From Akkermansia sp. (GTDB taxonomy: Bacteria; Verrucomicrobiota; Verrucomicrobiia; Verrucomicrobiales; Akkermansiaceae): a stretch of 64,000 nucleotides of DNA. Shown in pieces: positions 12,065 to 46,248 of the stretch. The notes beneath the pieces were generated by a model. That model ran no database searches. It worked only from the letters and a program-made list of their open reading frames with translations, and was not told the origin of the DNA. The position numbers and the translations under genes were made by a program. The stretch is from assembly GCA_045635265.1 (NCBI GenBank), contig JAZRBU010000028.1:29019-93018 (forward strand). Reading direction: 5' to 3'. Positions within the stretch are counted from its first letter, which is position 1. Each line of letters opens with the position of its first letter.

Positions 12065-12068
12065 TCTG

Positions 12069-26417: not shown

Positions 26418-27548
26418 TTACTCCTTCGCCAGCTCACCCCACACACGCTTCTGATAACGATACGACTTAGCCGTCAGGCAACCTCCGCTCAGGAACATGA
26501 GCCCCCAGCACGTCAGAAACAGAGGAACAGCGAAAAGATTGACGAGACTCAGCGCATGAGCCTCCTCCGGAGCATCCGCAAAATAGAGCAGCACGGTTTC
26601 CCTGCCTTTGGGATTATTCTGAAAAAGCTCGGCGTCCTTTACCTCCCGGCAATAGCGCCGACCATCCGCAACGGTATATTCGTAAATGGGGCGATATGCG
26701 TCCCCGTCCTTCTCCGCACGGACCACTTTCCCAACTGTTCGCTCGGCTTTCACAAAATACTCCAGAGGCTCTTCCGCCAGCGAAATCCCGGCATACAGGG
26801 CAAGCGTTCCGCCAACTATCATTACCACGGAAATTACACCCCAACATTTCTCCGGCGGTTGCACACTGGAGCGTGGGTCTGCCCAACTCAGGCTGCGGGA
26901 ATGCTCCGCATCCATCCGTGGAGGGAAAGCTGCTGCCGTCGTCTGCAGAGCCTCCAGCACAGACCCCATATCGGCCAAATTAAGGAAACCCAATCGAGGA
27001 CGCCTACCAAATGCATCCGGAGCGGTGTTCTCGTATGCCAGCACAATATCACCGCGGCCTCCTTTCCGCTCCACAATCTCCACCACCATATTAGATGCCA
27101 ACGGATATAGCGTCATCTCCCAACCCGGCAGCGGCAGCCTGCTCTTCGCCACCACAGCATGCCGATTCGTCACGGCATAAAATGTTCGCCGACGATTCCC
27201 CACCGTCAGCACAGGTATCAACAAAGTCAGACCGACCAAGAGCATGCAAAAGGAGGCAATCAGGTAGCCCACGGCATCCACCTCCTGGCTACCCAGGGAC
27301 ACCAGTATGAAGATTCCGGAAAACATAGACATGACCAACGTCAGCAGAATCCAGTGCTGCAGCGCTTTCTTCTCCGGAATACACCGCGGGCGAACATACC
27401 AACGCACGGCCTCACCGTCCGACAATACAGACCTCAGAGCTACCTTTTCTCCCTCTCCTAAGACTTGTGTTGACATGGTAGATTCCTTGTTTTTCTGCCT
27501 CAATTCTCTCATCGGAATCAGAGCATCATCTCCGGACTCCGCACTCAT
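26418..27548 (-). CDS. Membrane protein, paralogue family member 2, with DUF3592-like C-terminal module
   Basis: N-terminal half parallels 11222..12064 (RRRTFYAVTNRHAVVAK, GRGDIVL). C-terminal TM-beta-TM unit VGKVVRAEKDGDAYRPIYEYTVADGRRY. The start codon is uncertain because there are several in-frame Met codons. Confidence 0.6.
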   Translation of the reverse strand: MSAESGDDALIPMRELRQKNKESTMSTQVLGEGEKVALRSVLSDGEAVRWYVRPRCIPEKKALQHWILLTLVMSMFSGIFILVSLGSQEVDAVGYLIASFCMLLVGLTLLIPVLTVGNRRRTFYAVTNRHAVVAKSRLPLPGWEMTLYPLASNMVVEIVERKGGRGDIVLAYENTAPDAFGRRPRLGFLNLADMGSVLEALQTTAAAFPPRMDAEHSRSLSWADPRSSVQPPEKCWGVISVVMIVGGTLALYAGISLAEEPLEYFVKAERTVGKVVRAEKDGDAYRPIYEYTVADGRRYCREVKDAELFQNNPKGRETVLLYFADAPEEAHALSLVNLFAVPLFLTCWGLMFLSGGCLTAKSYRYQKRVWGELAKE

Positions 27549-27931
27549 CCGCCCCCATTCTATGCCCTTTCAGACCGCCTTGCAAGCCAAAATCTCACTA
27601 CTCAATTTAGAAGCCTCCACCACTTCACTCCCGGATAAAAACTGACTTTTTGCCGGCAATCAACATTTCTCCCGAAACACCTTTTTCCACACCTCATTTT
27701 TCTATCAATAATTCACCCGCTGCAGAAATTAAATTTCCGGGCAGACACATTCCATCCTCCTCATATCATTCCAAACTCCGGCCACCGGATTCGATGTTAG
27801 TCTACCCCCAATCAATTCTTCTTATCATATCAGCATTTCTGAATTACGCACTGTTAATTATTATTGTCCATTTTCCTATTTTTTCATATTTTTACTCCCA
27901 TCTTTTTATTTTGTTTCAATAACTGCTACGT

Positions 27932-27946
27932 TTTCTAAACTTATAA
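27932..27946 (+). repeat. 15-nt direct repeat copy 1 (tttctaaacttataa)
   Basis: An exact copy recurs at 28238-28252, 306 bp away, within the ORF-poor AT-rich spacer. Confidence 0.8.
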
Positions 27947-28237
27947 AACACCCACTCCCTTTCGGCATCAAAACAAGGCTTATTTTTACCTCATGTCAAA
28001 ATCCCACACCACCGCAGGTTCATTTTTCACCCAACATCTCAGCACCATTCTGCAGGAACGCCCAATTGCTCATTTTAAACTCTCAAACTAACGTCTCTGA
28101 GCATCTCTACATACTTGCTTTCCCTTAAGCGTCTCTTTTCACTAAGAATTTCTTCAGACTTGTAATTTATTCTATTTATTGCATATAGATTAAACTCTGC
28201 AATATGCCCGTTTGTTTAATTTTCGCACTTGTTATCG

Positions 28238-28252
28238 TTTCTAAACTTATAA
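28238..28252 (+). repeat. 15-nt direct repeat copy 2 (tttctaaacttataa)
   Basis: Exact match to 27932-27946. Confidence 0.8.
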
Positions 28253-28769
28253 TCAACAGTCTCCATTTCAATCTGCACACAGAGAAAAGATGACGCCTTC
28301 GTGAAGGATTACCCACCGCTCCAAAAGCCATCTTTTCGGGCTTCAAAACCACAAAAACGAGACTTTCTCAAGCCAAATTACCCCCGCAAAACACCGTATT
28401 TTCTCCTCATCAAAAAGAAGATTCCACTCAAAAATAATGAAAATATCGCAAAATTCGGATTTTTATCATGAATATCATCTTTTTTAGCATTAAATTGATA
28501 TTCTTGAGCCTATTTTTTCTTTTGTTCATCACATTTCCTCTATCGGCAGAGTTAGATAGTTTTGCACTCTGAGAAATTGCTACGACGTTCGCTCTTTCAT
28601 CCCTATCATTAGTGGCAAAGCAGCGTTCTTCTTTAGCGACACACACACAGCGCATTTATCCTCATATAATGCACAAAACAGCCGCTAAACAGCGACAATT
28701 CGCCATGATTTCCAGGCTCGCACTAGAAGCACTGAATATCAGCCATTTACAATAAAACGCCGCAAGAAG

Positions 28770-28829
28770 CGCGAGAATCGCATATTCCGTACAAAAGTAC
28801 GGGCGCGTTTCAAATTTTCGATTCTCGCG
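28770..28829 (-). terminator. Nested hairpin downstream of the 249-aa gene
   Basis: An 11-bp perfect inverted repeat, cgcgagaatcg (28770-28780) with cgattctcgcg (28819-28829), encloses an inner hairpin ccgtac-aaaa-gtacgg (28787-28802). Confidence 0.5.
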
Positions 28830-28834
28830 GCACT

Positions 28835-29584
28835 TTAAATTCCGCTTTTTCGCTTTTGTGTGGGTTTCTTCTTGGACTTTTTCACGGGTTTGGATTCTTC
28901 CCGCGTCTCCTCATCCGAAGCGTCTGACGGAGACACGAGCTCCAGCAATTCCTTGTAGGAAGCCAGAACAGCCGGGCCAACCCATTCATTGCCACTGTAA
29001 CTACCCGTGCCGATTTCTTTCATGTTCCCGGTTTGCGCATCCATCATCGTAATAGCACCATTGGCATATTTGAAATAGGCCAGAGGTTTTCCGGAGGCAT
29101 TGACCGCCCGCAAATCGTACGTACCATAGCTGTACTCCTTGCCACGGGCATCCTTTTGAAAGAGCGCCTCGCGAGCCTTGGCGTGATAGATATTCACAAC
29201 GGGGCAAGGAATACTGCCGCTGGCGGCAGAGCCTCGTGACTTCCCCTTCTTCTTATTTTTCCCGGATTTGCCCTCATTTCCATTCTGCTCAGGAGGGAAA
29301 TCGAGATACAGGACAAGAGCTGCACCGCTGCGCTCTATCTCCTCATGCGTCGGAATCAGCGGGGCACAGACTTCGCCCAACCTATCCTTCACATTATACC
29401 CCAGATAGCACAGGAAAAAGACCTTGGCTTTGCGGTCATATTTGGGGGTATTGATGACATATCCCTTACCGCGCCGCCCCGCCTCTATCATCCCGGAAAC
29501 GGAAGGAGACGCAGCTTGCAAAGGCACCGACAGACAGGTCAGAAGCCCCAGAAAAATACAGCAGAATTTCAGATATTGATACAT
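28835..29584 (-). CDS. Hypothetical secreted protein with Lys-rich loops/tail
   Basis: Signal peptide MYQYLKFCCIFLGLLTCLSVPLQA. No recognisable domain. Last gene of the DUF4143 ATPase operon. Confidence 0.55.
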   Translation of the reverse strand: MYQYLKFCCIFLGLLTCLSVPLQAASPSVSGMIEAGRRGKGYVINTPKYDRKAKVFFLCYLGYNVKDRLGEVCAPLIPTHEEIERSGAALVLYLDFPPEQNGNEGKSGKNKKKGKSRGSAASGSIPCPVVNIYHAKAREALFQKDARGKEYSYGTYDLRAVNASGKPLAYFKYANGAITMMDAQTGNMKEIGTGSYSGNEWVGPAVLASYKELLELVSPSDASDEETREESKPVKKSKKKPTQKRKSGI

Positions 29585-29613
29585 ATTATTATCAGGTACG
29601 ATAGTGTTTATTA

Positions 29614-30171
29614 TTACAACTCACGAAAGAACTTTTCCACGGGCTCCATGGGAATGTCAGCAGGCATATTGCCGATATCCTGCACCTCGCCGGTCTCAAA
29701 ATTGAAATAATGAAGGGCACCGGATTGCTGGCGCAGGTAGAGCTCCGTGGGGTACTTCTTCCAGCCGGCAGTACCTCCCTGAAACCCGATACAGGTATAC
29801 CACGGCTCATAGTACCCCTGCCCATCATCCCCGGGCAGCCCCTCGGTCGGGCTTACTTGGACACTATAAAAAAGCGTATCGTCGATATGATATGTACGCA
29901 TATACCAGCGGCGAGTCCCATCACAGTATAGCGTTTTTGTGCTGAAAAAGGAGCTGATGATACTCCCCAGAACAACCAGACAAATCACCCCAAAACACCC
30001 CAGAGAACAGCCATGAGAGCACCCGCTCTTCTTCCCCTGCAGGCGCATTTTTATCAACGCTCGTCCTATGATGACCAGCACCACTACTGCCGCAACAGGC
30101 ATCACATAAGGAGCAATTTCGTACCACATATTATCAAGCACAAAAGGTTTGTTCCGACGCTGTTTCCTCAC
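29614..30171 (-). CDS. Hypothetical 2-TM membrane protein
   Basis: The GTG at 30171 overlaps the ATPase stop (GTGA). An alternative ATG lies at 30129. Two hydrophobic helices are followed by an aromatic-rich soluble part. Confidence 0.5.
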   Translation of the reverse strand: MRKQRRNKPFVLDNMWYEIAPYVMPVAAVVVLVIIGRALIKMRLQGKKSGCSHGCSLGCFGVICLVVLGSIISSFFSTKTLYCDGTRRWYMRTYHIDDTLFYSVQVSPTEGLPGDDGQGYYEPWYTCIGFQGGTAGWKKYPTELYLRQQSGALHYFNFETGEVQDIGNMPADIPMEPVEKFFREL

Positions 30172-31400
30172 ATAGCGGATATCGGGAATGCCTTATGCCC
30201 TTTACCGATGGAGAACATCTCCCTTGCGGTACAGAGAACGACACCCGGCTGCATTTCGGCATTACCGGTGGGGATGCCGCCCACCGCTTTTAAATCAGCC
30301 GATGTCGGACTGCTGCTCCGCTTGACTTCCATGGGATAGATTTTCCCGCTGTGTTCAAGCAGGAAGTCCACTTCGGCTCCATTGCTGTCCCGATAGTAGC
30401 TCAGCCGAGAACGCAGCCCGCGGCTGCCCAGAGCCCGATATAATTGCCCGAACACCCAGGTTTCCAGGATAGCTCCACTCATGGCTCCGCTTTGCAAAGA
30501 GGCCGGAGTAGGCCAGCTGCAAAGCCACGCACAAAGGCCGGTATCCATGAAATATAGCTTGGGGGATTTGCTCAAGCGCTTAATCGTATTGATTGAATAT
30601 GGCTGCAGCAGAGTGACGATACCACTTGCTTCCAGAATACTTACCCAGCTTTTTGCCGTCTTGGGAGAAATCCCGGCATCCTTTGCCAAATCAGCATACA
30701 CCAGTTGCTGCCCGGTTCGCGCGGCGGCAGATTGCATGAGCACCATAAACGCATTTTTGTCACTTACCTGAGTCAATGCCTGAACATCTCTCTCCAGATA
30801 CGTTTGCAGATAGGAATCAAAATATTGGTCTACATTTCGATTGAGATCCCGGTGCAGTGCCGGATAGCCCCCGCGCCAGATGCGTGCATAGAGTTCATTG
30901 ATATCGCACGAACGACGCGCCGGCATCAATTCCGTCAGACGCTCGAGCGTGGGAAAAAAGTCGGCCTCGTTGCTTGTACGGGTTATTTCGCGCTGGGAGA
31001 GAGTGCAAAGCTCCAGAATCCCCACTCGCCCGGCCAGGCTTTCACTCACCCCCTTCATCATGTGAAACCGCTGGGAACCGGTCAGCCAATACATGCCCGG
31101 GCGGTCTTCCTTATCCACCATCCACTTGATAGCTCTCAACAGTTCCGGTGCATACTGCACCTCATCGATACAGAGCGGTGTCCCCTTCTCTTCAAGATAC
31201 CCGATAGGATCATTTTTGGCCTGTCGTAGCTCTCGAAAATCATCGAGATTAACATAATTCATATCCCCGGGCATGATTTGCTTCAACATCGTCGATTTGC
31301 CCACCTGCCGAGCACCGGTTATCAGCACGCATGGAAAACTGCGGCTCATTTCCTCAACCGTAGAGAGTGCTTTTCTGGGAATGTATTCGTTCTCGTTCAT
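30168..31400 (-). CDS. AAA ATPase with DUF4143-type C-terminal domain
   Basis: Walker A ITGARQVGKST and Walker B LCIDEVQY. About 410 aa, with the usual AAA_14 + DUF4143 layout (YFMDTGL..., EVDFLLE...). Confidence 0.75.
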   Translation of the reverse strand: MNENEYIPRKALSTVEEMSRSFPCVLITGARQVGKSTMLKQIMPGDMNYVNLDDFRELRQAKNDPIGYLEEKGTPLCIDEVQYAPELLRAIKWMVDKEDRPGMYWLTGSQRFHMMKGVSESLAGRVGILELCTLSQREITRTSNEADFFPTLERLTELMPARRSCDINELYARIWRGGYPALHRDLNRNVDQYFDSYLQTYLERDVQALTQVSDKNAFMVLMQSAAARTGQQLVYADLAKDAGISPKTAKSWVSILEASGIVTLLQPYSINTIKRLSKSPKLYFMDTGLCAWLCSWPTPASLQSGAMSGAILETWVFGQLYRALGSRGLRSRLSYYRDSNGAEVDFLLEHSGKIYPMEVKRSSSPTSADLKAVGGIPTGNAEMQPGVVLCTAREMFSIGKGHKAFPISAM

Positions 31401-31460
31401 CTTCCTGTCCCATTCTGCCCCCGCCCGCAGAAATTGTCAAGCAAAATGAACTCCGCTTCT

Positions 31461-31493
31461 ATGCAAAACAGGAATCGGATTCCCGTTTTGCAT
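31461..31493. promoter_or_regulatory. 33-bp palindromic operator-like site 1 upstream of the DUF4143 ATPase gene
   Basis: atgcaaaacaggaatc-g-gattcccgttttgcat, with arms matching 15/16. Confidence 0.6.
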
Positions 31494-31522
31494 AAAATTT
31501 TACCAAATTGACCCTCTTTTTT

Positions 31523-31555
31523 ATGTAATAATGGAATTAGATTCCCGTTTTGCAT
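31523..31555. promoter_or_regulatory. 33-bp operator-like site 2 (degenerate left arm, identical right arm)
   Basis: atgtaataatggaatt-a-gattcccgttttgcat. The 21-nt stretch gattcccgttttgcataaaat is identical to site 1. Centres are 62 bp apart. Confidence 0.55.
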
Positions 31556-31572
31556 AAAATAAACCAAGTCAT

Positions 31573-32559
31573 TCAGCTTAAATTCCAGTACGCCTTGGCC
31601 TGCTTCACCTGTGGCAGATTCAGGTAGCGGCTCAGGAGCAAATTGGCACTGCGGTGCCCCATCTCCAACTGCAGCGCTCCCAAATTCTGAAAATACGCCG
31701 CATGATAGCTGGCAAAAGTGTGGCGACACACATCCGGCACCCACTGCCCGGGTGCAAATCCGGCTGCGCGTCTCAGCCGCCTCCAGCGGTTTTCCCAGTT
31801 ACCGGGAATGCGCAGCGGCACCCCGCGCAGCTTCCCTTTATTACGCAGCGGCACGGCACGCCCGCCGCCGGTCTTACTGCTACTCGCCGGAACAATCACC
31901 CTGCCCTGCTGCGGTTGAATATGCGTAGTCTCCAACCGCGCCACCTCCTGCGGTCGCAGCCCGCAATACAGCAACAAATGCAGCGATAACTGCATGTCGC
32001 GATGCTGCGGCATCTTGGCGGCAGCCTCCAAGCGCTTGATTTCTTCCGCGCCAAGAGGCTTGATTTCCTGCTCCCTCACCCGGCGGCATTCTATGCGTGA
32101 CACGGGATTTTCGCTACACCACTCCTGCTTTTGCCCATAAGAAAAAATGCTGTGCAGAATCGCCCTGCCCTTGTTATAGCTATGCACACTTCCACCGAAA
32201 GCCGTCTGCAACAGCTCCCGACACTCACGGCTAGACATCGCCCGCAGCGGTCGCTCCGCTACACCTTCCACCCGCAGCATTCGCCGCACAAAATGCCGCA
32301 AATCCCGCAGCGTCACCGCCCTCCGCCCCGCCCGAGCCTGCACACTCGCCCAAGCTGCCGTCTCAAAAGAAACCGTATGCTCCTCTGCCCTGATTGCCGC
32401 CACCCCCGCATGCAACACCCGCCGCATCAACCGCATCATTTCTCCCCTCTCCATCCCGGCACACCTCTCCCCCAGCTCCTCCGCCGCCTCCATCACTAGG
32501 CGGGATATATCGTTGAGATTCAGTGGTAACTCCTTAATTATTTCTTTTGCTGTTTTCAT
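31573..32559 (-). CDS. Tyrosine recombinase/integrase
   Basis: Trimmed to MKTAKEII (ATG at 32559). Catalytic pattern: R in GLRPQEVARL, CRHTFASY, and MGHRSANLLLSRYL (H...Y). Confidence 0.85.
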   Translation of the reverse strand: MKTAKEIIKELPLNLNDISRLVMEAAEELGERCAGMERGEMMRLMRRVLHAGVAAIRAEEHTVSFETAAWASVQARAGRRAVTLRDLRHFVRRMLRVEGVAERPLRAMSSRECRELLQTAFGGSVHSYNKGRAILHSIFSYGQKQEWCSENPVSRIECRRVREQEIKPLGAEEIKRLEAAAKMPQHRDMQLSLHLLLYCGLRPQEVARLETTHIQPQQGRVIVPASSSKTGGGRAVPLRNKGKLRGVPLRIPGNWENRWRRLRRAAGFAPGQWVPDVCRHTFASYHAAYFQNLGALQLEMGHRSANLLLSRYLNLPQVKQAKAYWNLS

Positions 32560-32576
32560 AGTTTTGGTAGGTGGTT

Positions 32577-32593
32577 CAGCATTTTTAATGCTG
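32577..32593. promoter_or_regulatory. 17-nt palindrome CAGCATT-N3-AATGCTG in the integrase leader
   Basis: cagcatttttaatgctg. Read on the minus strand it is identical to 32734-32750. It ends 17 nt from the integrase ATG. Confidence 0.6.
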
Positions 32594-32733
32594 GTCAAGC
32601 AGAAAAATCTGTTTTGCACTCTTAAATGCTGAAAAAAACACAATACTATGTGCACAGTGCTGGTTCAAGATAAATCAAGTCGATTGCACTTCATGCCCGT
32701 TTTATAAACAAGTCATAAATGTACAGGTTCATA

Positions 32734-32750
32734 CAGCATTAAAAATGCTG
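32734..32750. promoter_or_regulatory. 17-nt palindrome CAGCATT-N3-AATGCTG in the RM-gene leader
   Basis: cagcattaaaaatgctg, 14 nt upstream of the GTG start at 32765. An extra half-site aatgctg lies at 32625-32631. Confidence 0.6.
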
Positions 32751-32764
32751 ATAAATAGAGCCAT

Positions 32765-35700
32765 GTGAAATCCACTCTCCGTACCCTACTTGATTCCATA
32801 CGCGAAGCTACCCAACAAACATCTGAAGCTGATAAAGGGCACCGTTTTGAGGTACTCATGAAGCGGTATCTGCTGACTGACCCCACCTATAAGGCTCGAT
32901 TCTCAGATGTCTGGCTCTGGAATGAATGGCCCTATGCCAAAGGTCACGATGTGGGTATTGATATCGTGGCCAAAGAGGCTGATTCTGACCGTTACGTAGC
33001 CATACAGTGCAAATTTTATGAGCCTACACACCTGATGAGACTCCCTGATGTGCAGACTTTCTTCGCGGCTCTCAATGCCACCATCAATACTGAGTACAGC
33101 AAAAAGGACTCATTCGTACAAGGCATCATCATTGCCACGACTGACCATTGGAATGTAGTTCTGCTCAATAAATTGTATCAACAACACATTCCCTGCCAAC
33201 ACATCGGACTCTCTGACCTGGAAGAAGCCGCCGTGGACTGGTCTACCATTCTCAAAGGACAAGGTGAAATCGCAAAGTATCAGCCCCGCCCCCATCAGCG
33301 TGAAGCCATTGATGCCGTATTGGAGGGGTTCATGACTACTGACCGTGGTAAACTCATCATGGCCTGCGGTACCGGTAAGACTTTCACGGCTCTCCGACTG
33401 ATGGAAGAATTCACAGGTGGTAAGGGTTGTGTCCTGTTTCTTGCTCCGAGCATTGCCCTCGTTGCCCAAAGTCTGCGTGAATGGATGGCTCAAACAACTT
33501 GCAAAATCCATCCCATTGCCGTGTGTTCTGATGGTGAAGCATCCTCCATTGATGACTTGGTGGATTTGTCTGCTCGTGACCTCCCTGCGAGAGCTACCAC
33601 AGACCCCACGACTATTGCTCAACTGTATGCCAGATTCAAGGATAGCCATCTGACTGTTATTTTCTCCACATATCAGTCCATAGAGAAATTACATGAGGCT
33701 CAAAAGATCGGTGCATTGCCGGAATTTGACCTCTGCATCTGTGATGAAGCCCACCGCACGACAGGTGTTTCCCTCTATGATGAGAAGAAGGGTAAGCACC
33801 ATGAATCTCACTTCACCAAAATTCACAAGCAGGACTACATCGCATGCCGTAAGCGAGTCTACATGACTGCCACGCCGAAGATTTATGCCGAATCTGCGCG
33901 ACAAAAAGCAAAGGATACCAATGCAGAACTGGCTTCAATGAATGACCGTTCCTACTTTGGGGATGAATACTTCCGTCTGCCCTTCTCCCGTGCTGTTCGC
34001 GAGGGTCTGCTCACCGATTATAAAGTGCTGGTGCTCTGCGTTGATGAGGATTACGTAAAGGACATCATGGGGGAGCAACTCCAACAGGATGAAACAGGCG
34101 CCATTGAACTGGATGATGCCGTGCGACTTGTTGGCTGTTATAACGGACTGCGTAAAAAAGTCTTGTTGCCCGCCAATGCTGCTGCAGGTAATGCTGATTC
34201 CTACGACCCATCTCTCCCCGAACTACTTTCTCACGATGAGGACTTCCTTACCTCTGACCCGGGGCCGATGAAACGTGCGGTATCCTTTGCCAATGTCATC
34301 AAGGCTTCCAAGAATTATACCGAGATGTGGGGTAAGGTTGTGAATGCCATCCGCAAGGATGAAGAGGACGATTCTTCTTTCCTTGATAGCGAGATGCAGC
34401 ATGTGGATGGCAACATGGACATGGGAGAACGCGCGGCTCTGCTCTCGTGGCTCAAAGGTAATGCAGGAACAAACGCCAATCATGGTGTACCCGAATGTCG
34501 TATTCTCTCCAATGCTCGCTGCTTGTCAGAAGGTGTGGATGTTCCGTCTCTGGATGCGGTCATGTTCCTTGCACCTCGTAAATCGCAGGTGGATGTGGTG
34601 CAGTCCGTGGGGCGAGTGATGCGAATTGCTCAGGGTAAGAAGTTCGGTTACATCATTCTGCCCATCGGTATATCTCCCAGGGATAAGCCCGAAGAAGTGC
34701 TGGATAAGGATGAGAAGTATCGTGTGGTTTGGGATGTTCTGCAAGCTCTCCGCTCACACGACGACCGCTTCAACGCTGAAATCAACTCCATTGAACTCAA
34801 CAAGGGCCGAGGTAAACGTATCGTAGTAGGTGGTGTTACCGGGAAAAAGGGCAAGAAGCGCAACCCGAAAAAGAAGGATGGTTATGATGAATACGAGGAG
34901 GATGTACTCGTTGCCAAAGAAGGCGATGACAAACAGCTTTCCTTTGATTTTGACTTTGAGAAAGAATTACCCGCATGGACGGATGGTATCCTCGTCCGCA
35001 CCGTTCAGAAGTGCGGCGACAGGCGTTATTGGGAGGATTGGGCAAAGAACATCGCCAAGATTGCAGAAAAGCAGACAGCGGCTATCAACACACTTCTGGA
35101 TAAGGGTATTGGTTTGGCGGAGTTCCAACTCTTCCTGTCAGGTCTGCGAGAAAACACGAACCCTGCCATTACCGAGGCTGATGCCATTGAAATGTTGGCA
35201 CAGCAATTCATCTCCCGACCTGTGTTCAATGCGCTCTTTGAGAAGTATCAGTTCGCAGAGAACAATCCTGTCTCCAAGACCATGAACGACATGCTGGACA
35301 TCGTGCAGCAGAACACCGATGCCAATGACTTGCGAGAACTACGCCGCTTCTATGATTCAGTGAAAGACCGAGCCCAGAGCATTGATAACGCTGCCGGGCG
35401 TCAGCAGGTGGTCGTAGAACTTTACGACAAGTTCTTCAAGCAAGCATTCCCCAAGTTGGCCGAGAAACTGGGTATCGTTTACACCCCCATCCCTGTGGTA
35501 GACTTCATCGTGCATTCCGTCCACAAGGTGCTGCAACAGGAATTCGGGGTCAAAGATGGTCTGGGGGCCCGTGGTGTAAAGATTCTTGACCCCTTTACAG
35601 GAACAGGCACATTCATCGTCCGCGCCATCCAGAGCGGCCTTATCAAACGCAGCCAACTGCCTTACAAGTATCGTAACGAACTCTTTGCCTGTGAAATTGT

Positions 35701-37660
35701 GCTGCTTGCCTACTACATCGCGTGTGTAAACATTGAGGTGGCTTATCATGGTGTCATGAAGCAGGAGGAATACGAACCGTTCAATGGTATCTGCTTGACC
35801 GATACTTTCCGCATGGATGGTAACAGTGCTGCTGATAAGGACTTGTTCGCAGCCTTTGAGGATAACGGCGAGCGTGTGAAGAACCTCTGCAAGCAGGACA
35901 TCCGAGTGATTATCGGTAATCCTCCTTATTCTGCCAAACAAGAGTCTGCAAACGATAACAATCAGAATGAAGCCTATCCATACTTGGATGAGCGTATCGC
36001 TAATACATACGCTAAGAATGCCAAGGCTACTAACAAGAACAGTCTCTACGACTCATACATCCGTGCATTCCGATGGGCATCCGACCGCATTACCGATGAT
36101 GGTATCCTCGCCTTTGTAACCAATGGTGCATACATTGATAACAACGCCATGACTGGCTTCCGTCAGTCCCTCATGGACGAGTTTGATTCCATCTACTGCT
36201 TCAATCTCCGAGGAAACGCTCGCACATCAGGTGTTCAGCGTCAGAAGGAAAAGGGTAATGTGTTCGGTGAGGGGTCTCGCACACCGATTGCCATTATCAT
36301 CCTCGTCAAGAAGAAGAACCGACCTGCTGGTCAGCTGGCTACGCTTCATTATCACGACATCGGTGATTATCTCTCTCGTGAGCAGAAACTTGAAATCATC
36401 CAGGGGTTTGGTAACTACTCTGGTATCCCTTGGCAGCCACTCATCCCTGATGAACACGGAGATTGGCTCAATCACCGCACATCTGGTTATGATAAGTTCC
36501 TGTCCATCGGTGATAAAGCCACCAAGGGTAAGCCTGATACCAAGGCTCTCTTTACCTTGTTCTCCAATGGGGTAAAGACGAACCGTGACACATGGTGTTA
36601 TAACTATTCTCGCGTTGCGTTGGAAAGCAACATGCGCCGTAGTATTGAGTTCTTCAATACTCAATCAGGACTTGCAGAATTTGACTACGACCCCACCAAA
36701 TTCTCATGGGGAAGACAGCAGAAAAAGGATGCAGAGCGTGGTAAGCAATACTGTTTCTCTGCTTCATCCATCGTCCCTGCTGTTTATCGTCCGTTCTGTA
36801 AGCGTCATGGATACATCCATAAAGACATGAACGACATGCTTTATCAGATACCTAAACTGTTCCCTACACCACAGCATAAGAACTTGGTAATTCAACTAAC
36901 AGGTAATGGTTCTAGCAAACCGTTCTCTTGTCTTATTAGTGCGATAACGCCAGATTTACAGGTAATGTTCAATGGACAGTGCTTCCCCCTCTACTGGTAT
37001 GAGGAACGGAATGCCGATGCGCCGATGCTTGACCTTGGTATGGAAGCCGATGCAGGTGATTACATCCGTCACGATGGCATCTCAAACTTCGGACTCAAAC
37101 AGTTCCGAACAGCCTACGGAGACCCCAAGATTGGTAAGGAGGACATCTTCTATTATGTGTATGGGCTGTTGCATAGCACAGAATACCGCACACGCTTTGA
37201 GAACGACCTGAAAAAGGAACTTCCCCGCATCCCCTTTGCCAAGGATTTCTGGGCATTCTCCAAGGCCGGCCGTAAGTTGGCAGAACTCCATCTGAACTAT
37301 GAGACGATAGAACCTTGGCCAATCAAGGAATACTCCCATGGTAACTTCCGAGTGACCAAGATGCGTTTCCCCAAGAAAGGAATTCGTCACACCATCATCT
37401 ACAATGACTCATGTACGCTGAGTGAGATTCCCGAAGAGGCATACGAATACATCGTGAATGGCAAGTCCGCCATCGAATGGGTCATGGAGCGCTATGCCGT
37501 CACCATAGATAAAGATAGTGGTATCACCAATGACCCGAATGACTGGTGTGACGAACAAGGCAATCCCCGCTACATTATTGACCTCGTGAAACGCATCGTC
37601 CGTGTCAGCATGGAAACCATGGAGATAGTAAAAACCTTGCCCCCGCTGGAGGAGATGTGA
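32765..37660 (+). CDS. Type ISP restriction-modification enzyme (Mrr-like nuclease + SF2 DEAH translocase + N6-adenine methyltransferase + TRD), LlaGI/LlaBIII-like
   Basis: GTG start. Nuclease motif GIDIVAK...AIQCKFY (D...QxK). Helicase motifs: I ACGTGKT (about 33367), II DEAH (33742-33753), VI QSVGRVMR. MTase motifs: I LDPFTGTGTF, IV NPPY (35918-35929). 1631 aa as a single polypeptide. Confidence 0.85.
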   Translation: MKSTLRTLLDSIREATQQTSEADKGHRFEVLMKRYLLTDPTYKARFSDVWLWNEWPYAKGHDVGIDIVAKEADSDRYVAIQCKFYEPTHLMRLPDVQTFFAALNATINTEYSKKDSFVQGIIIATTDHWNVVLLNKLYQQHIPCQHIGLSDLEEAAVDWSTILKGQGEIAKYQPRPHQREAIDAVLEGFMTTDRGKLIMACGTGKTFTALRLMEEFTGGKGCVLFLAPSIALVAQSLREWMAQTTCKIHPIAVCSDGEASSIDDLVDLSARDLPARATTDPTTIAQLYARFKDSHLTVIFSTYQSIEKLHEAQKIGALPEFDLCICDEAHRTTGVSLYDEKKGKHHESHFTKIHKQDYIACRKRVYMTATPKIYAESARQKAKDTNAELASMNDRSYFGDEYFRLPFSRAVREGLLTDYKVLVLCVDEDYVKDIMGEQLQQDETGAIELDDAVRLVGCYNGLRKKVLLPANAAAGNADSYDPSLPELLSHDEDFLTSDPGPMKRAVSFANVIKASKNYTEMWGKVVNAIRKDEEDDSSFLDSEMQHVDGNMDMGERAALLSWLKGNAGTNANHGVPECRILSNARCLSEGVDVPSLDAVMFLAPRKSQVDVVQSVGRVMRIAQGKKFGYIILPIGISPRDKPEEVLDKDEKYRVVWDVLQALRSHDDRFNAEINSIELNKGRGKRIVVGGVTGKKGKKRNPKKKDGYDEYEEDVLVAKEGDDKQLSFDFDFEKELPAWTDGILVRTVQKCGDRRYWEDWAKNIAKIAEKQTAAINTLLDKGIGLAEFQLFLSGLRENTNPAITEADAIEMLAQQFISRPVFNALFEKYQFAENNPVSKTMNDMLDIVQQNTDANDLRELRRFYDSVKDRAQSIDNAAGRQQVVVELYDKFFKQAFPKLAEKLGIVYTPIPVVDFIVHSVHKVLQQEFGVKDGLGARGVKILDPFTGTGTFIVRAIQSGLIKRSQLPYKYRNELFACEIVLLAYYIACVNIEVAYHGVMKQEEYEPFNGICLTDTFRMDGNSAADKDLFAAFEDNGERVKNLCKQDIRVIIGNPPYSAKQESANDNNQNEAYPYLDERIANTYAKNAKATNKNSLYDSYIRAFRWASDRITDDGILAFVTNGAYIDNNAMTGFRQSLMDEFDSIYCFNLRGNARTSGVQRQKEKGNVFGEGSRTPIAIIILVKKKNRPAGQLATLHYHDIGDYLSREQKLEIIQGFGNYSGIPWQPLIPDEHGDWLNHRTSGYDKFLSIGDKATKGKPDTKALFTLFSNGVKTNRDTWCYNYSRVALESNMRRSIEFFNTQSGLAEFDYDPTKFSWGRQQKKDAERGKQYCFSASSIVPAVYRPFCKRHGYIHKDMNDMLYQIPKLFPTPQHKNLVIQLTGNGSSKPFSCLISAITPDLQVMFNGQCFPLYWYEERNADAPMLDLGMEADAGDYIRHDGISNFGLKQFRTAYGDPKIGKEDIFYYVYGLLHSTEYRTRFENDLKKELPRIPFAKDFWAFSKAGRKLAELHLNYETIEPWPIKEYSHGNFRVTKMRFPKKGIRHTIIYNDSCTLSEIPEEAYEYIVNGKSAIEWVMERYAVTIDKDSGITNDPNDWCDEQGNPRYIIDLVKRIVRVSMETMEIVKTLPPLEEM

Positions 37661-37672
37661 TATAGTATCTAT

Positions 37673-38491
37673 ATGGGAGAAAAGAAGTATACGAGATTAT
37701 CACGCCAAGAAATCGAGTTGGCGCTCGCAAATACGCAAATGAAAGTAGGCGAATTAGCCCAGCTAACTCTGAGCAGTATTCTTCAGCATCCCGATTTTCC
37801 CTCTGAATACTTAGAAAAGTTCAGATGTAAAAATTTTAGCAAAAATACTTTCGGTCTTTCCAGAGCACTATTAATCAGAAGAAGAGAATGGGCCAAAACT
37901 CCTCAATTACCTTACTATGCGGAATATCTGGAATGTAATGGCAAATATTACTGTCTTTGTTCAGAATGGACAGAACGACAGCTACCAAAATTAAAAAATT
38001 GGGTTAATCGTCACAAAATCGATTTGAGTGAACGCCGGAACCTTTGGCAACTTGAAGAAGCACATCCTCAACAGAAAAACCGATGGGCTGTAGTTGAATT
38101 AGAACAATTGTGCCAGGATAAAATCATTCCCTGTGGCAGAATCAAACGAGGAAAAGGAAATGATAGATTAATAAAGATTTCAAAAACCGATTGGCTGGGA
38201 ATAGTGGATAAAGAACCAAATCGCATCGTCTTCCGTTTCAGAAAGAATAATATATATAGGCTATACGCTGTTTCTACGAGTTTGATTCGCGAAACAATAA
38301 ATGCTTTCCCGCATAGATTTTCAAAAACAACAGCTAGCGAATACTGGAGTTTTTCATTAAATATTTTATCTGGCAAACTTAGTAATACTCAAGGTTCACC
38401 GAGAACAGCATTTGCTACATGTTATGTATACATTGCGAGACCGACAGCGTCTTCCAAAATTCAGTCTCCACAGAAAAATATTAACACCTGA
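37673..38491 (+). CDS. Hypothetical protein (272 aa), no recognisable domain
   Basis: ATG 12 nt after the RM stop, on the same strand. Very AT-rich. Coding-like composition with no internal stops. Confidence 0.6.
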   Translation: MGEKKYTRLSRQEIELALANTQMKVGELAQLTLSSILQHPDFPSEYLEKFRCKNFSKNTFGLSRALLIRRREWAKTPQLPYYAEYLECNGKYYCLCSEWTERQLPKLKNWVNRHKIDLSERRNLWQLEEAHPQQKNRWAVVELEQLCQDKIIPCGRIKRGKGNDRLIKISKTDWLGIVDKEPNRIVFRFRKNNIYRLYAVSTSLIRETINAFPHRFSKTTASEYWSFSLNILSGKLSNTQGSPRTAFATCYVYIARPTASSKIQSPQKNINT

Positions 38492-38538
38492 TTTCTTATC
38501 CGTCAAAAAGCAAACTTTAAAAAAACTACATTTTTGAT

Positions 38539-40587
38539 ATGAACTACCTCTCAAAAGTAGAAGCAAAGAAAGCCGTCTTATCTGATGGCAAAAACATTTG
38601 CAACATGTCTTTCAGCCTCCGTGATGACGACGAATTAGCATGGTTGGCAATTGAACACGGAGCGTCTATCAATGATGTCTCTTACAGACTACAAAATGAC
38701 CTTGCCTTTTCTCTTAAATATGCGAGATATTGCGCCAAATTGGGAATAGTTGAACAAAATTTCTTCAGAGCATTATTTATTGCACAACATTCTCTTGAAT
38801 TCCTTAACACTTACTGTTCACTATTTGCAAATGAGCCGGAGTTCATTATGTACTTGAAGCTTGCTCATGGAAAGAATTATAGATCTCCCATAGTCTCACT
38901 CAACAAATATGAAGGAGAAGAGCTGGCTCACATCATCAATCAATATAAGCGCAACCTGATAAAAGAATTGAAAGAGGAATATTATTCCCATTCTTATCAG
39001 GAAATGCATTTAAAAACAGGTTACAATGCAGCAAATGAACTGCGTAATTTCGCCCTATTGTCACGTGGTGACAACCTTCCGTTCTGCGAGATTCCTGAGC
39101 TGATAAAAAAACAAATTGAACGCTTAGATACACAAGTTGATTGTTTGAGAGCAACTAGCAGGAAAGGCTCATTTCCTGAACGCGTCATAGATGCCATTCT
39201 TAAGCAACTCAATGTTGCATTTGACCGAGAAGTTGTTTTCCAGTGGAGTCGCCCTAATAATGCAAACAAATTAAATGGTTACAAGCGTTATGACTTCTAT
39301 CTTCCTGAATACAATGCAATAATAGAAGTGCATGGAGCTCAACATTATTCGGCAGGGTTCGAAACATTCGGCGGGCGTTCTCTGAAGGAAGAACAGGCCA
39401 ACGATCACTTAAAACAAGCATTAGCTAAACAAAATGGCATTACCAATTATATCGTCATTAATGCCGCAGTTTCCAACTTTTATTATATTAAAGAATCAGT
39501 CATTTCGAATAAAGATTTCTCTACTTGCTTCGATTTATCAAAATTAAACTGGCATGAGATAAAAATAGCAACTATAGAGGAACCAGACATAAGCTTACCC
39601 TTATATCAATTACAAAAATCTTTTTATGAAGAACTGAGTTCTCTATTCAATAACACCTTCTCTGTTATCCCAATCCAACAACCATCTAAAGATTTTGGTG
39701 AAGGGTGTTCGGAAGAGACTTCCAAACTGACAATATGGAAAAAAAGCATCAAAGTCAGTATGCGAGGTCTGTATCCTCATGAAATCATATTGCTAGAGCG
39801 AGCCAAGCGTTCATCGGCACCGGAAATGACATGTCCAGTTGATGCTGACAATGTTATTGGTAAGTGGTACTATGAATATGGAATCTCAAATGTGCGTCCC
39901 ATAGTTGAACGATTGGCTGATTCAGGATTTATACAAGTAGGAGGACTACGATATACACTTCAACGCACAGAAGCTAATAAACTCAAACAGTTTGCTTCCA
40001 AACAAGGCATAAAGGCTCATGGCAAGAAAGAAGAAATTATCGCTCGAATTCTCGAAAACATTCCCGAACACATTATCAAAGAGACCTTCACTAAACAGTA
40101 CTATGAGCTAACGGAATTAGGCAAACAAGAGCTGAATGAAAACAGCTACATTTTTGATGCCATTCAAGTTCCGATTCTGGACGCAATGACTCGAATCAAA
40201 TTAGCGCAGCAACATCCCGATCAGGACATCTATGAAGTCATACAGAGACACCTCAAAGGTCATGAACCCTCTACCGGCTGCACAAATACAGACTCCGCAC
40301 AAAGTGCTACAAACTACGATGAGGGTGATAAATACCAGATCATTTGTACCCTGGACAAAAAGACTTGCGAGCGATGTGGTTCGATGGATTTGAAAGTTTT
40401 TGACTATGCACAAAAGGAAATAGGTGTTACTTACCCACCATTCCACGATGGTTGCCGCTGCTGTGCAGTACCGTATTTTGACGGAGACGAACATAATGAG
40501 CGTGCAGCACGAAACAGAGACGGCAAAACCATCTTTGTGGAAAATATGAATTGGCAAGAATGGAGAAAAGTATATGGCAGCAACTAA
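38539..40587 (+). CDS. Multidomain hypothetical protein: DUF4116-like N-terminal repeats + DUF559/Vsr-like PD-(D/E)xK core + SAP motif + C-terminal phage MuF-like Cys-rich domain
   Basis: RYDFYLPEYNAIIEVHGAQHY...EQANDHLKQALAKQNGI (nuclease-like, about 39241-39500). LKQFASKQGIKAHGKKEEIIARIL (SAP-like). LDKKTCERCGSMDLKVF...YPPFHDGCRCCAVPY (MuF/SPP1 gp7-like, about 40351-40480). Confidence 0.6.
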   Translation: MNYLSKVEAKKAVLSDGKNICNMSFSLRDDDELAWLAIEHGASINDVSYRLQNDLAFSLKYARYCAKLGIVEQNFFRALFIAQHSLEFLNTYCSLFANEPEFIMYLKLAHGKNYRSPIVSLNKYEGEELAHIINQYKRNLIKELKEEYYSHSYQEMHLKTGYNAANELRNFALLSRGDNLPFCEIPELIKKQIERLDTQVDCLRATSRKGSFPERVIDAILKQLNVAFDREVVFQWSRPNNANKLNGYKRYDFYLPEYNAIIEVHGAQHYSAGFETFGGRSLKEEQANDHLKQALAKQNGITNYIVINAAVSNFYYIKESVISNKDFSTCFDLSKLNWHEIKIATIEEPDISLPLYQLQKSFYEELSSLFNNTFSVIPIQQPSKDFGEGCSEETSKLTIWKKSIKVSMRGLYPHEIILLERAKRSSAPEMTCPVDADNVIGKWYYEYGISNVRPIVERLADSGFIQVGGLRYTLQRTEANKLKQFASKQGIKAHGKKEEIIARILENIPEHIIKETFTKQYYELTELGKQELNENSYIFDAIQVPILDAMTRIKLAQQHPDQDIYEVIQRHLKGHEPSTGCTNTDSAQSATNYDEGDKYQIICTLDKKTCERCGSMDLKVFDYAQKEIGVTYPPFHDGCRCCAVPYFDGDEHNERAARNRDGKTIFVENMNWQEWRKVYGSN

Positions 40588-40617
40588 AGCCTACTAATCA
40601 GTTCCAGCGCATGTCTA

Positions 40618-40680
40618 TTGTCTCATATCTGCTAAAAAAGCAAGAGATTTTACGCAGATATGAGACAAAATCTTTTTTTC
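40618..40680 (+). terminator. Intrinsic terminator after the 682-aa gene
   Basis: A 15-bp stem, ttgtctcatatctgc (40618-40632) with gcagatatgagacaa (40655-40669), followed by aatcttttttt. Confidence 0.8.
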
Positions 40681-40769
40681 TGCACCTTTCTCCATGTGGA
40701 CACATTCTGCTGTCCGAAACAGACATTCGTTTCTGCGGCAAACAAGAGTTTCCTCTCTCATTTCCTTGG

Positions 40770-40814
40770 AAAGAAATGACACAACGCCCCGCGCTTCGGG
40801 ATGAAGGCGGGGCG
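40770..40814 (-). terminator. Hairpin terminator after groEL
   Basis: cgccccgc (40785-40792) pairs with gcggggcg (40807-40814), 55 nt past the groEL stop. The minus-strand tail is ttgtgtcatttctt. Confidence 0.55.
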
Positions 40815-40868
40815 TGAATTGTTTTATATTACAGGGTAGTCAGGCAGTGTGACTTTTTGGGGGGCTGC

Positions 40869-42536
<1,668 letters not shown>

Positions 42537-42936: not shown

Positions 42937-44871
<1,935 letters not shown>

Positions 44872-44942
44872 CTATTGTTATGTTGTTTTGTTTGTTTAGA
44901 ATCTTCGGCGTCGTGATGAGACGCGCTCTTACTTTCTTATGT

Positions 44943-44958
44943 TGCAAATTGCGTGCCA
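44943..44958 (-). promoter_or_regulatory. Sigma-54 (-24/-12) promoter consensus upstream of dnaK
   Basis: The minus strand reads TGGCACGCAATTTGCA, matching TGGCACG-N4-TTGCW exactly with correct GG-N10-GC spacing. The -12 element lies about 87 nt upstream of the dnaK ATG. Confidence 0.6.
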
Positions 44959-45076
44959 ACTTTGATTTTTTTGTGATTTTTTATGCCAAAATCGTCAAAA
45001 AAGCTCATTTTTCAGACTTTTTGACTGCGTCTTACCCTACCCTCGACAGCTAAGATAACCGCTGCGACACACGCAG

Positions 45077-45133
45077 ATGCGGCATTTTGCCCCACCGGCA
45101 TGCGACAAAACGCACCATGCGGCATTTTGCCGC
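45077..45133. promoter_or_regulatory. Repeated dyads GCGGCA-TTT-TGCCGC (x2) plus related inverted element; candidate enhancer/operator sites
   Basis: atgcggcattttgcc occurs at 45077-45091 and 45117-45131 (exact 15-mers, 40 bp apart), with tgcgacaaaacgca at 45101-45114 between them. The sites lie 120-175 bp upstream of the sigma-54 element and 125-180 bp upstream of the tal ATG. Confidence 0.5.
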
Positions 45134-45257
45134 ACATCGACCGTCCGATTACAAATCGGGTGCATAAAGTATCATCTAAAACGTGTTGAATCAAGTTGCA
45201 GGCTTGAAGAGAAGCCGAAAATATGCTAGAATACTGCCACAGCATACAAGTTACATT

Positions 45258-46214: not shown

Positions 46215-46248
46215 TTTCCATTAGAAAAATCAACCCAAAGCAAGAACG

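Follow-up and report, generated by a model that had tools for sequence, protein, structure and literature searches.

What occupies the space between a membrane-protein gene and groEL in the genome of an Akkermansia sp., and how is this DNA gained, lost and controlled? The locus lies in a 64,000-nucleotide stretch of contig JAZRBU010000028.1 (GenBank assembly GCA_045635265.1, positions 29,019 to 93,018 of the forward strand), which we refer to as the window; all coordinates are those of the window unless a comparison contig is named. An initial annotation had described the segment at 27650-40780 as an integrase-centred island of lower GC content that is alien to the surrounding synteny. As judged by comparison with related loci, the low-GC block is a mosaic and not a single island. 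Our account of it as a whole, which we regard as reasonably probable, is that of a mosaic defence hotspot with a resident tyrosine recombinase and a putative promoter-inversion switch.

The sharp drop in GC content relative to the flanks was borne out by a computed profile, which also recovers the several levels that had been noted from sampled lines. The GC content is 46.6% at 27549-40868 as compared to 56.2% in the remainder of the window, and 1-kb windows average 0.469 inside (minimum 0.370) and 0.562 outside (standard deviation 0.033, minimum 0.462). The trough is stepped: 39.6% in a non-coding spacer at 27549-28834, 51.5-52.6% in the genes encoding a 249-aa protein, a 171-aa protein and a DUF4143 ATPase, 59.1% in the recombinase gene (GC at third codon positions, GC3, 0.68), 49.0% in the gene of a Type ISP restriction-modification (RM) enzyme and 62.7% in groEL, with the lowest values among the genes found in those encoding a 272-aa protein (37.9%, GC3 0.32) and a 682-aa protein (39.3%, GC3 0.37). 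The compositional deviation is strongest in these last two genes, and there is none for the recombinase. Domain matches and open reading frames (ORFs) confirm that an integrase-type protein, a Type ISP enzyme, a DUF4143 ATPase and orphan genes, as listed by the initial annotation, are all present.

To place the locus among its relatives, we used 10 long contigs (L081-L090) retrieved by exact look-up of the window's GroES sequence and further loci (L091-L108) retrieved from recombinase homologues. Exact look-ups of the window's GroEL and recombinase sequences returned no record, and a recombinase scan of metagenome contigs returned one 1.3-kb contig only; GroEL is verrucomicrobial, with the best relative among the matches listed being 79% identical. 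The dnaK-groES-groEL block, of which the window's groEL (40869-42521, minus strand) is the part that forms the right flank, is 91-98% identical across all 10 of the identical-GroES contigs; the genes after groEL vary. A Type I RM system follows groEL in L082, L083, L085 and L086 and a Type ISP enzyme in L084, L088 and L090, with additional cargo in L088 (HTH and HipA, DUF6088 and AbiEii), L084 (an AAA_15/AAA_21 ATPase), L090 (an AAA_13 ATPase) and L082 (an AlbA_2/HATPase protein), and with unknown genes as the cargo after groEL in L081 and L089. In L087, only the terminator of groEL and 115 bp separate it from the 171-aa and 249-aa genes, without cargo and without recombinase, and at the same point its sister L085/L092 carries 9.25 kb that comprises two small genes, hsdRSM and the recombinase. 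The 115 bp of L087 are AT-rich, unrelated sequence in place of cargo and recombinase. Since the cargo differs between relatives and is absent from L087, the block is not fixed; being compositionally foreign as well, it is indeed alien to the surrounding synteny, and the same block in all relatives, which would have marked an ancient core region, is not what we found.

Content polymorphism between conserved genes, known defence genes and compositional deviation, by which a defence hotspot is recognised, are all present here. The defence genes are those of the Type ISP enzyme and of the candidate system PDC-S01 (the DUF4143 ATPase) in the window and, in the relatives, of Type I RM, AbiEii, HipA, AAA_15/AAA_21, AAA_13 and AlbA_2. 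On the strength of these sequence comparisons, the site is very probably a strain-variable defence hotspot and mosaic downstream of groEL, which agrees with the two or more acquisitions at a defence hotspot suggested by the initial annotation: the 10 identical-GroES contigs differ in cargo, and a conspecific contig differs from the window by three separate indels or replacements. The groEL 3' flank in this taxon is a new site for a defence hotspot.

The variation extends to the level of the species. Contigs L084 and L091 are conspecific with the window (97.7-98.3% nucleotide identity over 12 kb of flank), and alignment to L091 resolves the locus into what reads as a mosaic with five modules or more. 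The window and L091 share the AT-rich spacer and, to its left, the DUF3592 gene at ~96-97%; past the 249-aa gene, L091 holds 1.5 kb that the window lacks. L091 also carries 7 bp in place of the 1,261-bp DUF4143 insertion at 30130-31390, shares positions 31391-37754 at 91.5%, and has an AAA_15 gene in place of positions 37755-40828, which comprise the 272-aa and 682-aa genes and a 220-bp intergenic piece. The variable DNA defined by comparison is therefore ~31,445-40,776 plus the insertion at 30,130-31,390, and for these parts the proposed extent of the island stands, whereas 27,650-30,129 is kept in relatives, with the 171-aa and 249-aa genes and the spacer lying beside groEL even in L087.

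One of the boundaries falls inside a gene. The Type ISP enzyme (32765-37660, plus strand; 1631 aa, GTG start) is intact and combines nuclease, SF2 helicase, coupler, N6-methyltransferase and specificity domain on one polypeptide, with five Pfam domains (Mrr_cat_2, 5e-38; ResIII, 1.6e-23; ISP_coupler, 4e-41; N6_Mtase, 1.8e-07; Type_ISP_C, 9.8e-113) and a full-length match to the PADLOC model REase_MTase_IIG (E = 0). The first 3.2 kb of the gene, up to ~35,950, are 99% identical to L091, after which identity falls to 72-88%; the divergent part (35955-37660) is the C-terminal third, that is, the methylase end and the specificity domain, and ~400 bp of the gene (36588-36983) are without any match in L090 or L088. 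This drop in identity within the gene suggests that the C-terminal specificity part was exchanged by intragenic recombination.

The recombinase sits where the variable arm meets the conserved arm. It is a Xer-like tyrosine recombinase of 328 aa (31573-32559, minus strand; starting MKTAKE, 59% GC) that matches Pfam Phage_integrase over part of the domain only (1.2e-11), a PHROG integrase family (5.6e-25) and, in NCBIfam, four weak Xer-type models only (XerC, XerD, archaeal XerA and a generic tyrosine recombinase); the NCBIfam search of the recombinase gave no match to the bacterial integron-integrase (IntI) model. When aligned to XerD (1a0p, E 2e-4), the Arg (GLRPQE), R-H-T-F and G-H motifs correspond and the C-terminal Tyr is present, with an Asp in place of the first His of HxxR, so that the protein is predicted, at the level of the active site, to have the catalytic motifs of a tyrosine recombinase. 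Among 1.84 billion representatives the family forms ~100 clusters (50% identity, E <= 1e-30) and is distant from XerD; the homologues at 98-59% identity are labelled Akkermansia sp. or Akkermansiaceae. While the initial annotation had treated the protein as an acquired integrase in the middle of the island, its GC content is host-like, its divergence is roughly in step with the host, it forms the fixed edge of the variable arm and it is paired with a covarying module of repeats and promoter, all of which speaks for a role as a local invertase or switch, either in place of that of an island integrase or in addition to it.

The recombinase and Type ISP genes are divergent, and this module occupies the 205 bp between them. 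Two 18-nt inverted repeats, the proximal IRp (TCAGCATTTTTAATGCTG, 32576-32593, 16 nt upstream of the recombinase ATG) and the distal IRd (CAGCATTAAAAATGCTGA, 32734-32751, 14 nt upstream of the Type ISP GTG), are 100% complementary and 140 nt apart. They are the only perfect non-hairpin inverted-repeat pair in the 64 kb, with no third copy in the window, and IRd is also the edge of homology with the Type I RM strains. Each repeat has 5-nt dyad arms, CAGCA/TGCTG, around an asymmetric 7-nt centre; judged by layout, this geometry is that of tyrosine-recombinase core sites, placed in inverted orientation.

The centres of the repeats vary among the 12 loci compared, which represent five chromosomal contexts, and the partner copies stay reverse complements of one another. 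Eight centres were found: TTTTTAA, TTTCTAA (L086), TTCCTTA (L090), TTTGAAC (L085/L092, with a matching arm change), TTGCGAA (L093/L094), TTATGAA (L107, at the same proS locus as L093), TTGCTAA (L108) and TTCGGAA (L081/L089, L095-98 and L102/103, with arms CAGTA/TACTG). In a covariation test on an 8-locus alignment with 500 shuffles and slid controls, 6 of the 17 pairs had changed on both sides (14 cells) and 90.4% of the cells were paired, while none of the 500 shuffles matched the observed covariation and the slid controls reached at most 42% pairing. No change kept pairing via a G:U-type pair, and the unpaired cells lie in the outer arms. The CAGTA/TACTG arms go with the recombinase clade of L089, L095 and L102, whose members are 77-81% identical among themselves and 67-77% identical to the recombinase of the window. 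Strictly Watson-Crick covariation, dyad symmetry within each site and an arm type that follows the recombinase lineage together argue for DNA-DNA matching, and not for an RNA helix or independent operators.

The 140 bp bracketed by IRp and IRd (32594-32733) form a putative invertible segment. It contains the promoter-like element TTGAAC-17-TATTGT (32640-32668, minus strand), which faces the recombinase gene and is the only conserved promoter-like element of the intergenic region: its TTG and TA..GT columns, 17 nt apart, are invariant in the 8-locus alignment. Some 20 nt upstream of the -35 lies a second invariant motif, CGGGCATGAAG (32689-32699, minus strand), in the same orientation in all loci. 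Both a promoter scan and inspection by eye revealed no conserved cargo-facing sigma-70 promoter in the intergenic region. As only 14-16 nt separate the repeats from the start codons, there is no room for promoters outside, and both genes would have to be driven from inside the segment.

The same arrangement of cargo, IRd, promoter, IRp and recombinase is found at four other chromosomal sites. Next to proS (L093, L094 and L107) the cargo is a four-gene operon with weak, efflux-like HlyD/FtsX/OEP matches in L093 only; the cargo genes of L093 and L094 are identical in length, and L107 is similarly organised. Next to the nitroreductase gene (L095-98) there are two unknown genes, with a DUF4143 fragment downstream; next to the M42 peptidase gene (L102/103), SNF2, DUF4391, methylase and Res genes make up a Type III-like RM system; and next to the HSP90 gene (L108) the cargo is an autotransporter, with the repeats 487 nt apart and a TRL lipoprotein gene enclosed. 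A fifth site, next to the ALAD gene (L099/L100), has a recombinase paralogue, and the contigs end ~170-230 nt upstream of it. L107 and L082 come from one assembly, and hence one genome has at least two recombinase paralogues. In serving RM, export and surface operons from fixed loci, such a recombinase-linked repeat module resembles local phase-variation invertases, not island integrases.

Contigs also stop at module boundaries elsewhere: L101 at the distal repeat and L104-L106, which carry the homologue P0124 of the 682-aa protein, just upstream of that gene. Such ends fit heterogeneity in the population, be it cargo variation or inversion, that breaks assemblies. Positions 4492-4800 of both L093 and L094 hold a ~300-bp array of ~10 different short GC-rich hairpins, with the spacer (A)GCGAAATT in the left half, its complement AATTTCGC(T) in the right half, and 13-nt terminal inverted repeats, AAATGGGAAGTTG / CAACTTCCCATTT, at the ends. 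The two contigs are 99.8% identical to the right of the array and unrelated to its left, and the array is either a rearrangement breakpoint or an assembly join at a structured element.

From this architecture we infer a tyrosine-recombinase inversion switch, as we do the inversion itself and which gene would be ON in which state of the segment. The variable arm extends from the recombinase, its fixed edge, to the groEL terminator; the recombinase would bind IRp and IRd and invert the 140-bp segment, thereby moving the promoter between the recombinase gene (the present orientation) and the operon of the Type ISP enzyme, the 272-aa protein and the 682-aa protein, and defence would become phase-variable. 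The junctions predicted for the flipped segment are …GGTTCATA-CAGCATTAAAAATGCTG-AACCACC… and …ATTTAT-CAGCATTTTTAATGCTG-GTCAAGCAG…. Cargo turnover would be a separate process with two routes. One is homologous recombination in the conserved flanks, which are groEL at one end and, at the other, the recombinase together with the switch and the first two-thirds of the RM gene; the second is site-specific or Campbell-type insertion just after the groEL stop. A further, separate insertion of 1.26 kb put the DUF4143/PDC-S01 ATPase into the operon of the 171-aa and 249-aa genes. For the inversion-switch part, we put the chances slightly above even.

Several observations weigh against such a switch. 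Every locus used for comparison comes from a metagenome contig. In none of the ~15 assemblies is the inner motif reversed, and the promoter is always directed toward the recombinase; assemblies report the majority state. The flipped switch was not seen in IMG/VR viral contigs, where searches with three patterns gave only chance matches in high-GC phage coding sequence. With the promoter facing the recombinase in the orientation seen, the RM operon is left without a recognisable promoter, and a simple one-promoter toggle would predict the cargo-ON, recombinase-OFF state as the stable majority. The element matches the promoter consensus at 8 of 12 positions, just below the threshold of the scanner, and is called a promoter by consensus only; and in the type-2 clade the distal repeat is only ~11-12 nt long. 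Furthermore, the breakpoint of the cargo within the species lies inside the Type ISP gene and not at the repeat, and thus the repeat is not needed for cargo exchange. A second, unrecognised promoter, paralogues acting in trans or a strongly biased switch would be ways round the promoter problem, and strong orientation bias has been reported for some A. muciniphila invertons (PMC11892184).

Could the recombinase instead be the integrase of a classical integrative island? Cargo and integrase gene would then enter and leave the groEL 3' flank together through an att site there, with the repeats as operators of the integrase gene or Int-binding sites. We regard this as unlikely, with perhaps a chance in the range of one in four or five. 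In its favour, cargo and recombinase are jointly present in L085/L092 and absent from L087, the recombinase occupies the groEL-distal end of the variable arm, and the protein has its PHROG integrase match. Moreover, the 40 nt after the groEL stop (40829-40868) end at a recurrent point of breakage and insertion: homology with L081, L084-86, L088 and L092 stops at 40829, before the hairpin of the intrinsic groEL terminator (40785-40817, minus strand). In L086 and L081 the final ~60 nt of groEL plus 44 nt occur twice, on either side of an insert of ~750 bp; L082 has a 74-bp duplication around the AlbA_2 gene and L091 has a 25-bp duplication. A recurrent break together with duplicated groEL 3' ends in these four contigs is the usual signature of integration at the 3' end of a gene, and the duplicated flanks have the form of the footprint of a circular element that carries a copy of its target's 3' end.

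The window itself does not show this footprint. It contains neither a further copy of the groEL flank nor any long direct repeat, and no groEL-flank direct repeat, nor any longer than ~12 nt, bounds cargo and recombinase in the window, L091, L092 or L089, so that an integrase-mobilised island with attL and attR failed the flanking-repeat test in all four. The exact flanking duplications that the initial annotation had proposed looking for are accordingly missing around the block, and the junction in L087, the would-be empty site, is the 115 bp of unrelated sequence rather than a clean attB. The window contains no tRNA or transfer-messenger RNA (tmRNA) gene, and hence no such integration target, and an Rfam scan of the window yielded zero families. 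The recombinase has host-like GC and GC3, and the cargo does not; its paralogues stay at fixed loci with conserved non-defence cargo, as at proS (L093, L094 and L107); and operators of a regulator would not need asymmetric centres that are exact reverse complements.

The ~750-bp inserts (L086:12015-12760 and L081:12012-12760) have a terminator of their own and an uncalled ORF of ~150 aa with an HTH; by sequence, each looks like a miniature integrated element or remnant that targets the groEL 3' end. About 10 nt from 40829 there is a dyad, AGTCA-CACTGCC-TGACT (40838-40854), whose 5+7+5 geometry is like that of the switch repeats; we rejected AGTCA-N7-TGACT as an att site, since a 5-nt dyad is expected by chance at about such a rate. 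Likewise, the 12-mer TCTGCGTAAAAT, found near the cargo terminator and downstream of the L092 recombinase, was rejected as att evidence, being weak and not reproduced in the window. Accretion, the tandem build-up of integrative elements that insert at the 3' end of a housekeeping gene, is known from the CIME/ICE elements at fda of Streptococcus thermophilus. The groEL locus is like these in that copies of the groEL 3' end bound small inserts in L081, L082 and L086, in its nested modules and in inserts of which some lack recombination genes; it is unlike them in that the window has no second copy and the resident recombinase is not adjacent to those repeats.

It is considerably less probable still that the repeats do not recombine at all, and serve as looping operators or pair in a long-range RNA helix through which the mRNA of the recombinase or of the cargo is controlled, with the locus varying by ordinary homologous recombination alone. 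The single orientation in every assembly is what this would predict, each repeat is dyad-symmetric like the site of a dimeric regulator, and the repeats overlap the 5' leaders of both genes. Against an RNA helix stand the strictly Watson-Crick covariation, in which pairing was never kept through a G:U-type pair, and the conserved promoter between the repeats, with which one transcript would not hold both; in L108, moreover, the repeats are 487 nt apart with a whole gene between them. As for operators, their spacers normally drift independently, whereas here eight centre variants are matched and the changes in the arms follow the recombinase lineage. Finally, that this is an old, fixed core region of odd composition can be practically dismissed: although relatives keep the recombinase, the spacer and the genes for the 171-aa and 249-aa proteins and the 51-53% GC of some genes is inside the host range, each strain examined has other cargo, even a conspecific whose flanks are 98% identical, and L087 lacks recombinase and cargo, which refutes the idea for 31.4-40.8 kb.

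The genes that the proposed switch would control include two downstream of the Type ISP gene. The 272-aa protein (37673-38491, plus strand, beginning 12 nt after the Type ISP stop) is a near-orphan with three homologues among 5.8 billion sequences; searches for family, PDB, PADLOC and PHROG matches gave zero, and its AF2 model (pLDDT 46) is too poor for a structure search. The 682-aa protein (38539-40587, plus strand) is a multidomain protein with Pfam matches to Phage_Mu_F and SAP, laid out as a helical N-terminus, a conserved core (RYDFYIP..IIEVHGAQH), a SAP motif and a MuF-like C-terminus. Its residues 202-330 have PHROG matches of homing-endonuclease type, and its AF2 model (pLDDT 75.8) has weak Foldseek matches to FAN1 (E 6e-3), which coincide with the SAP region found by sequence search, and to Vsr (probability 0.98, TM 0.40-0.45). 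While sequence searches did not confirm a nuclease domain and the fold support is weak, the modelled core is probably a Vsr/PD-(D/E)xK-like nuclease, which makes the protein a candidate effector. The Type ISP, 272-aa and 682-aa genes are co-directional with gaps of 12 and 47 nt and end at a hairpin terminator with a T-run (40618-40668, plus strand); co-direction, short gaps and the shared terminator suggest that the three form a single operon. The terminator lies within the 220-bp piece (40609-40830) that is kept among strains with different cargo. The 272-aa, 682-aa and DUF4143 genes may all act in defence.

On the other side of the recombinase, the DUF4143 ATPase had been annotated as an operon, and proved to be a single-gene insertion into one. 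The clean 1,261-bp insertion (minus strand) contains a gene at 30168-31400 whose product matches Pfam DUF4143 (6.6e-45) and AAA_14 (1.4e-28) and, over residues 5-410 as a full-length match, PADLOC PDC-S01 (PDLC04790, E 1.7e-115), a family that is only a candidate defence system. The gene is absent in L092 and L087 and present in L081 and L089. The insertion sits between a conserved sigma-70-like promoter, TTGACA-17-CAGAAT (31412-31440, minus strand), and the 171-aa gene, making the promoter that of a DUF4143/171-aa/249-aa operon; in L091 the same promoter stands directly before the 171-aa gene. A DUF4143 gene is immediately downstream of the recombinase in two chromosomal contexts, at full length at the groEL locus and as a 225-aa fragment at the nitroreductase locus (L095:6959-7636). 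The gene is nonetheless a clean presence/absence difference within the species of the window; a functional or insertional link to the recombinase is possible.

Between the recombinase and this downstream promoter lie two tandem, near-perfect palindromic units of ~60 nt (31442-31560) with arms TATGCAAAACGGGAATC, of which there are 3 copies as compared to 0.11 expected. The predicted RNA fold has -44.8 kcal/mol (z = -5.7), and the units are probably a terminator or insulator. Their presence in L091 and L089 and absence in L092 suggest a small structured insertion.

The remainder of the left arm consists of the 171-aa small membrane protein (29614-30129, minus strand; extended to 30171 in the ORF list), a 249-aa secreted protein with a signal peptide and a Lys-rich tail (28835-29584, minus strand), for which Pfam, NCBIfam, PADLOC and PHROG searches gave zero family matches, and the spacer, 1.29 kb of AT-rich non-coding DNA with a strong C>G skew (27549-28834). 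In all species examined, groEL or the recombinase is followed by the 171-aa and 249-aa genes; L087 has the 249-aa gene immediately behind groEL, L091 and L092 have it behind the recombinase, and L091 positions 11177-12444 match window positions 30129-28862 at 97.9%. The spacer is 95.7% identical in L091 and has no Rfam match; other species have an unrelated non-coding stretch of ~1.5 kb and 40% GC at its position, and it could be decayed cargo, a regulatory region or an unrecognised RNA. As far as these alignments reach, the two genes and the spacer are a conserved neighbourhood and not demonstrably island. Beyond the spacer, the left flank is formed by the gene of a DUF3592-type membrane protein (26418-27548, minus strand; 376 aa, weak Pfam DUF3592 match), which has 96.9% nucleotide identity in L091 and lies outside the island.

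The surroundings of the chaperone genes vary on a larger scale too. The dnaK-groESL block has different neighbourhoods among related species (window 42937-58900 compared with L083, L085, L087, L089 and L092). The transaldolase, epimerase and PATR-autotransporter genes are upstream of dnaK in the window and L084, and inverted and downstream of the 249-aa gene in L087 and L092; the trpS/pfkB block (56-59 kb in the window) abuts dnaK in other species. These differences indicate that rearrangement breakpoints coincide with both ends of the locus.

How does the proposed combination of hotspot, recombinase and inversion switch relate to known systems? At fimS of E. coli, the local tyrosine recombinases FimB and FimE invert a short promoter element between 9-bp repeats, which phase-varies the adjacent operon; fimB and fimE are transcribed toward fimS from promoters of their own. 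The groEL locus likewise has a local tyrosine recombinase, a short promoter-bearing element, short inverted repeats and an adjacent operon, and differs in that the recombinase gene points away from the switch and would rely on the inner promoter, with a swappable defence operon as the cargo. The locus is also like an integron in that a tyrosine recombinase diverges from acquired genes and in that the edge between conserved and variable DNA towards the Type I RM strains falls at a recombinase-type site. Unlike in integrons, the cargo units are whole operons of up to 5 kb and the breakpoint within the species is inside a gene; we ruled out an integron, as there is no match to the IntI model and there are no attC-like repeats between the cargo genes and no third copy of the site in the window.

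Invertible promoters (invertons) of gut bacteria were reportedly described by Jiang et al. in Science in 2019. In A. muciniphila there are ~32-39 invertons with 17-nt repeats ~157 nt apart, located near PEP-CTERM and autotransporter genes (PMC11892184). One group, 138, has ~32 invertons in one genome with one common repeat motif, implying a global invertase, and invertases near invertons are generally not regulatable by them (PMC11892184). The segment described here resembles these in being short and intergenic, with 18-nt repeats 140 nt apart as compared to 17 nt and 157 nt (PMC11892184), a likeness by length and spacing; it also has a promoter-like element inside and a tyrosine recombinase nearby, in the same bacterial family, and the paralogous cargo (autotransporter, surface/export and RM genes) overlaps. 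In contrast to group 138, each locus here has a private repeat centre and a private adjacent recombinase, and a single orientation is seen; and in contrast to known invertons (PMC11892184), the recombinase's own promoter is inside the segment.

Phase variation of RM systems by hsdS shufflons of Type I RM is known from A. muciniphila (PMC11741434), as well as from Mycoplasma pulmonis and S. pneumoniae. These share with the present locus a tyrosine recombinase beside an RM system and inverted repeats; shufflon repeats, however, are inside duplicated specificity genes and alter the specificity, while here they are intergenic and around a promoter, and the effect would be ON/OFF with specificity left as it is. 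An hsdS/TRD shufflon was ruled out, since the C-terminal region of the Type ISP gene is not duplicated in the window, in either direct or inverted orientation. Defence islands at chromosomal hotspots that lie between core genes are known as well, for example from the E. coli pan-genome (PMC10121019). The groEL site shares with them the fixed position, the conserved flanking genes, different systems in each strain, low-GC cargo, a nearby integrase and replacement that is compatible with homologous recombination mediated by the flanks; as compared to known hotspots (PMC10121019), the recombinase here is conserved, a covarying inverted-repeat module is attached to it, and the cargo is one operon that abuts the module. 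Hotspots and invertons are thus each known, and what is new here is a groEL-flank defence hotspot joined to a recombinase with a covarying inverted-repeat module that would act as its promoter switch.

Taken further, the same features could describe a portable, self-limiting toggle, in which one promoter would drive either the recombinase ('searching') or the operon ('locked ON') and defence operons would be swapped against the distal repeat, making the loci a family of phase-variable docking sites in Akkermansiaceae with the 272-aa/682-aa pair and the unknown cargo sets as new systems under its control. This extension is speculative and we think it improbable; if true, it would amount to an operon-scale, switchable analogue of the integron for defence, surface and export operons. 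The more modest inversion switch, if real, would mean that restriction and defence operons are expressed in part of the population only and can be replaced wholesale under the same control module, and it would join defence-island turnover and inverton phase variation, which are usually studied apart. The combination of dyad arms, a 7-nt centre and an adjacent 328-aa recombinase provides a signature for finding such modules and unknown cargo genome-wide; among the candidates for new defence systems are the 272-aa/682-aa pair and several unknown cargo sets. As prominent symbionts of the gut and candidate probiotics, Akkermansia and its relatives are organisms in which variation in phage defence and DNA methylation affects engraftment, phage therapy and genetic tractability.

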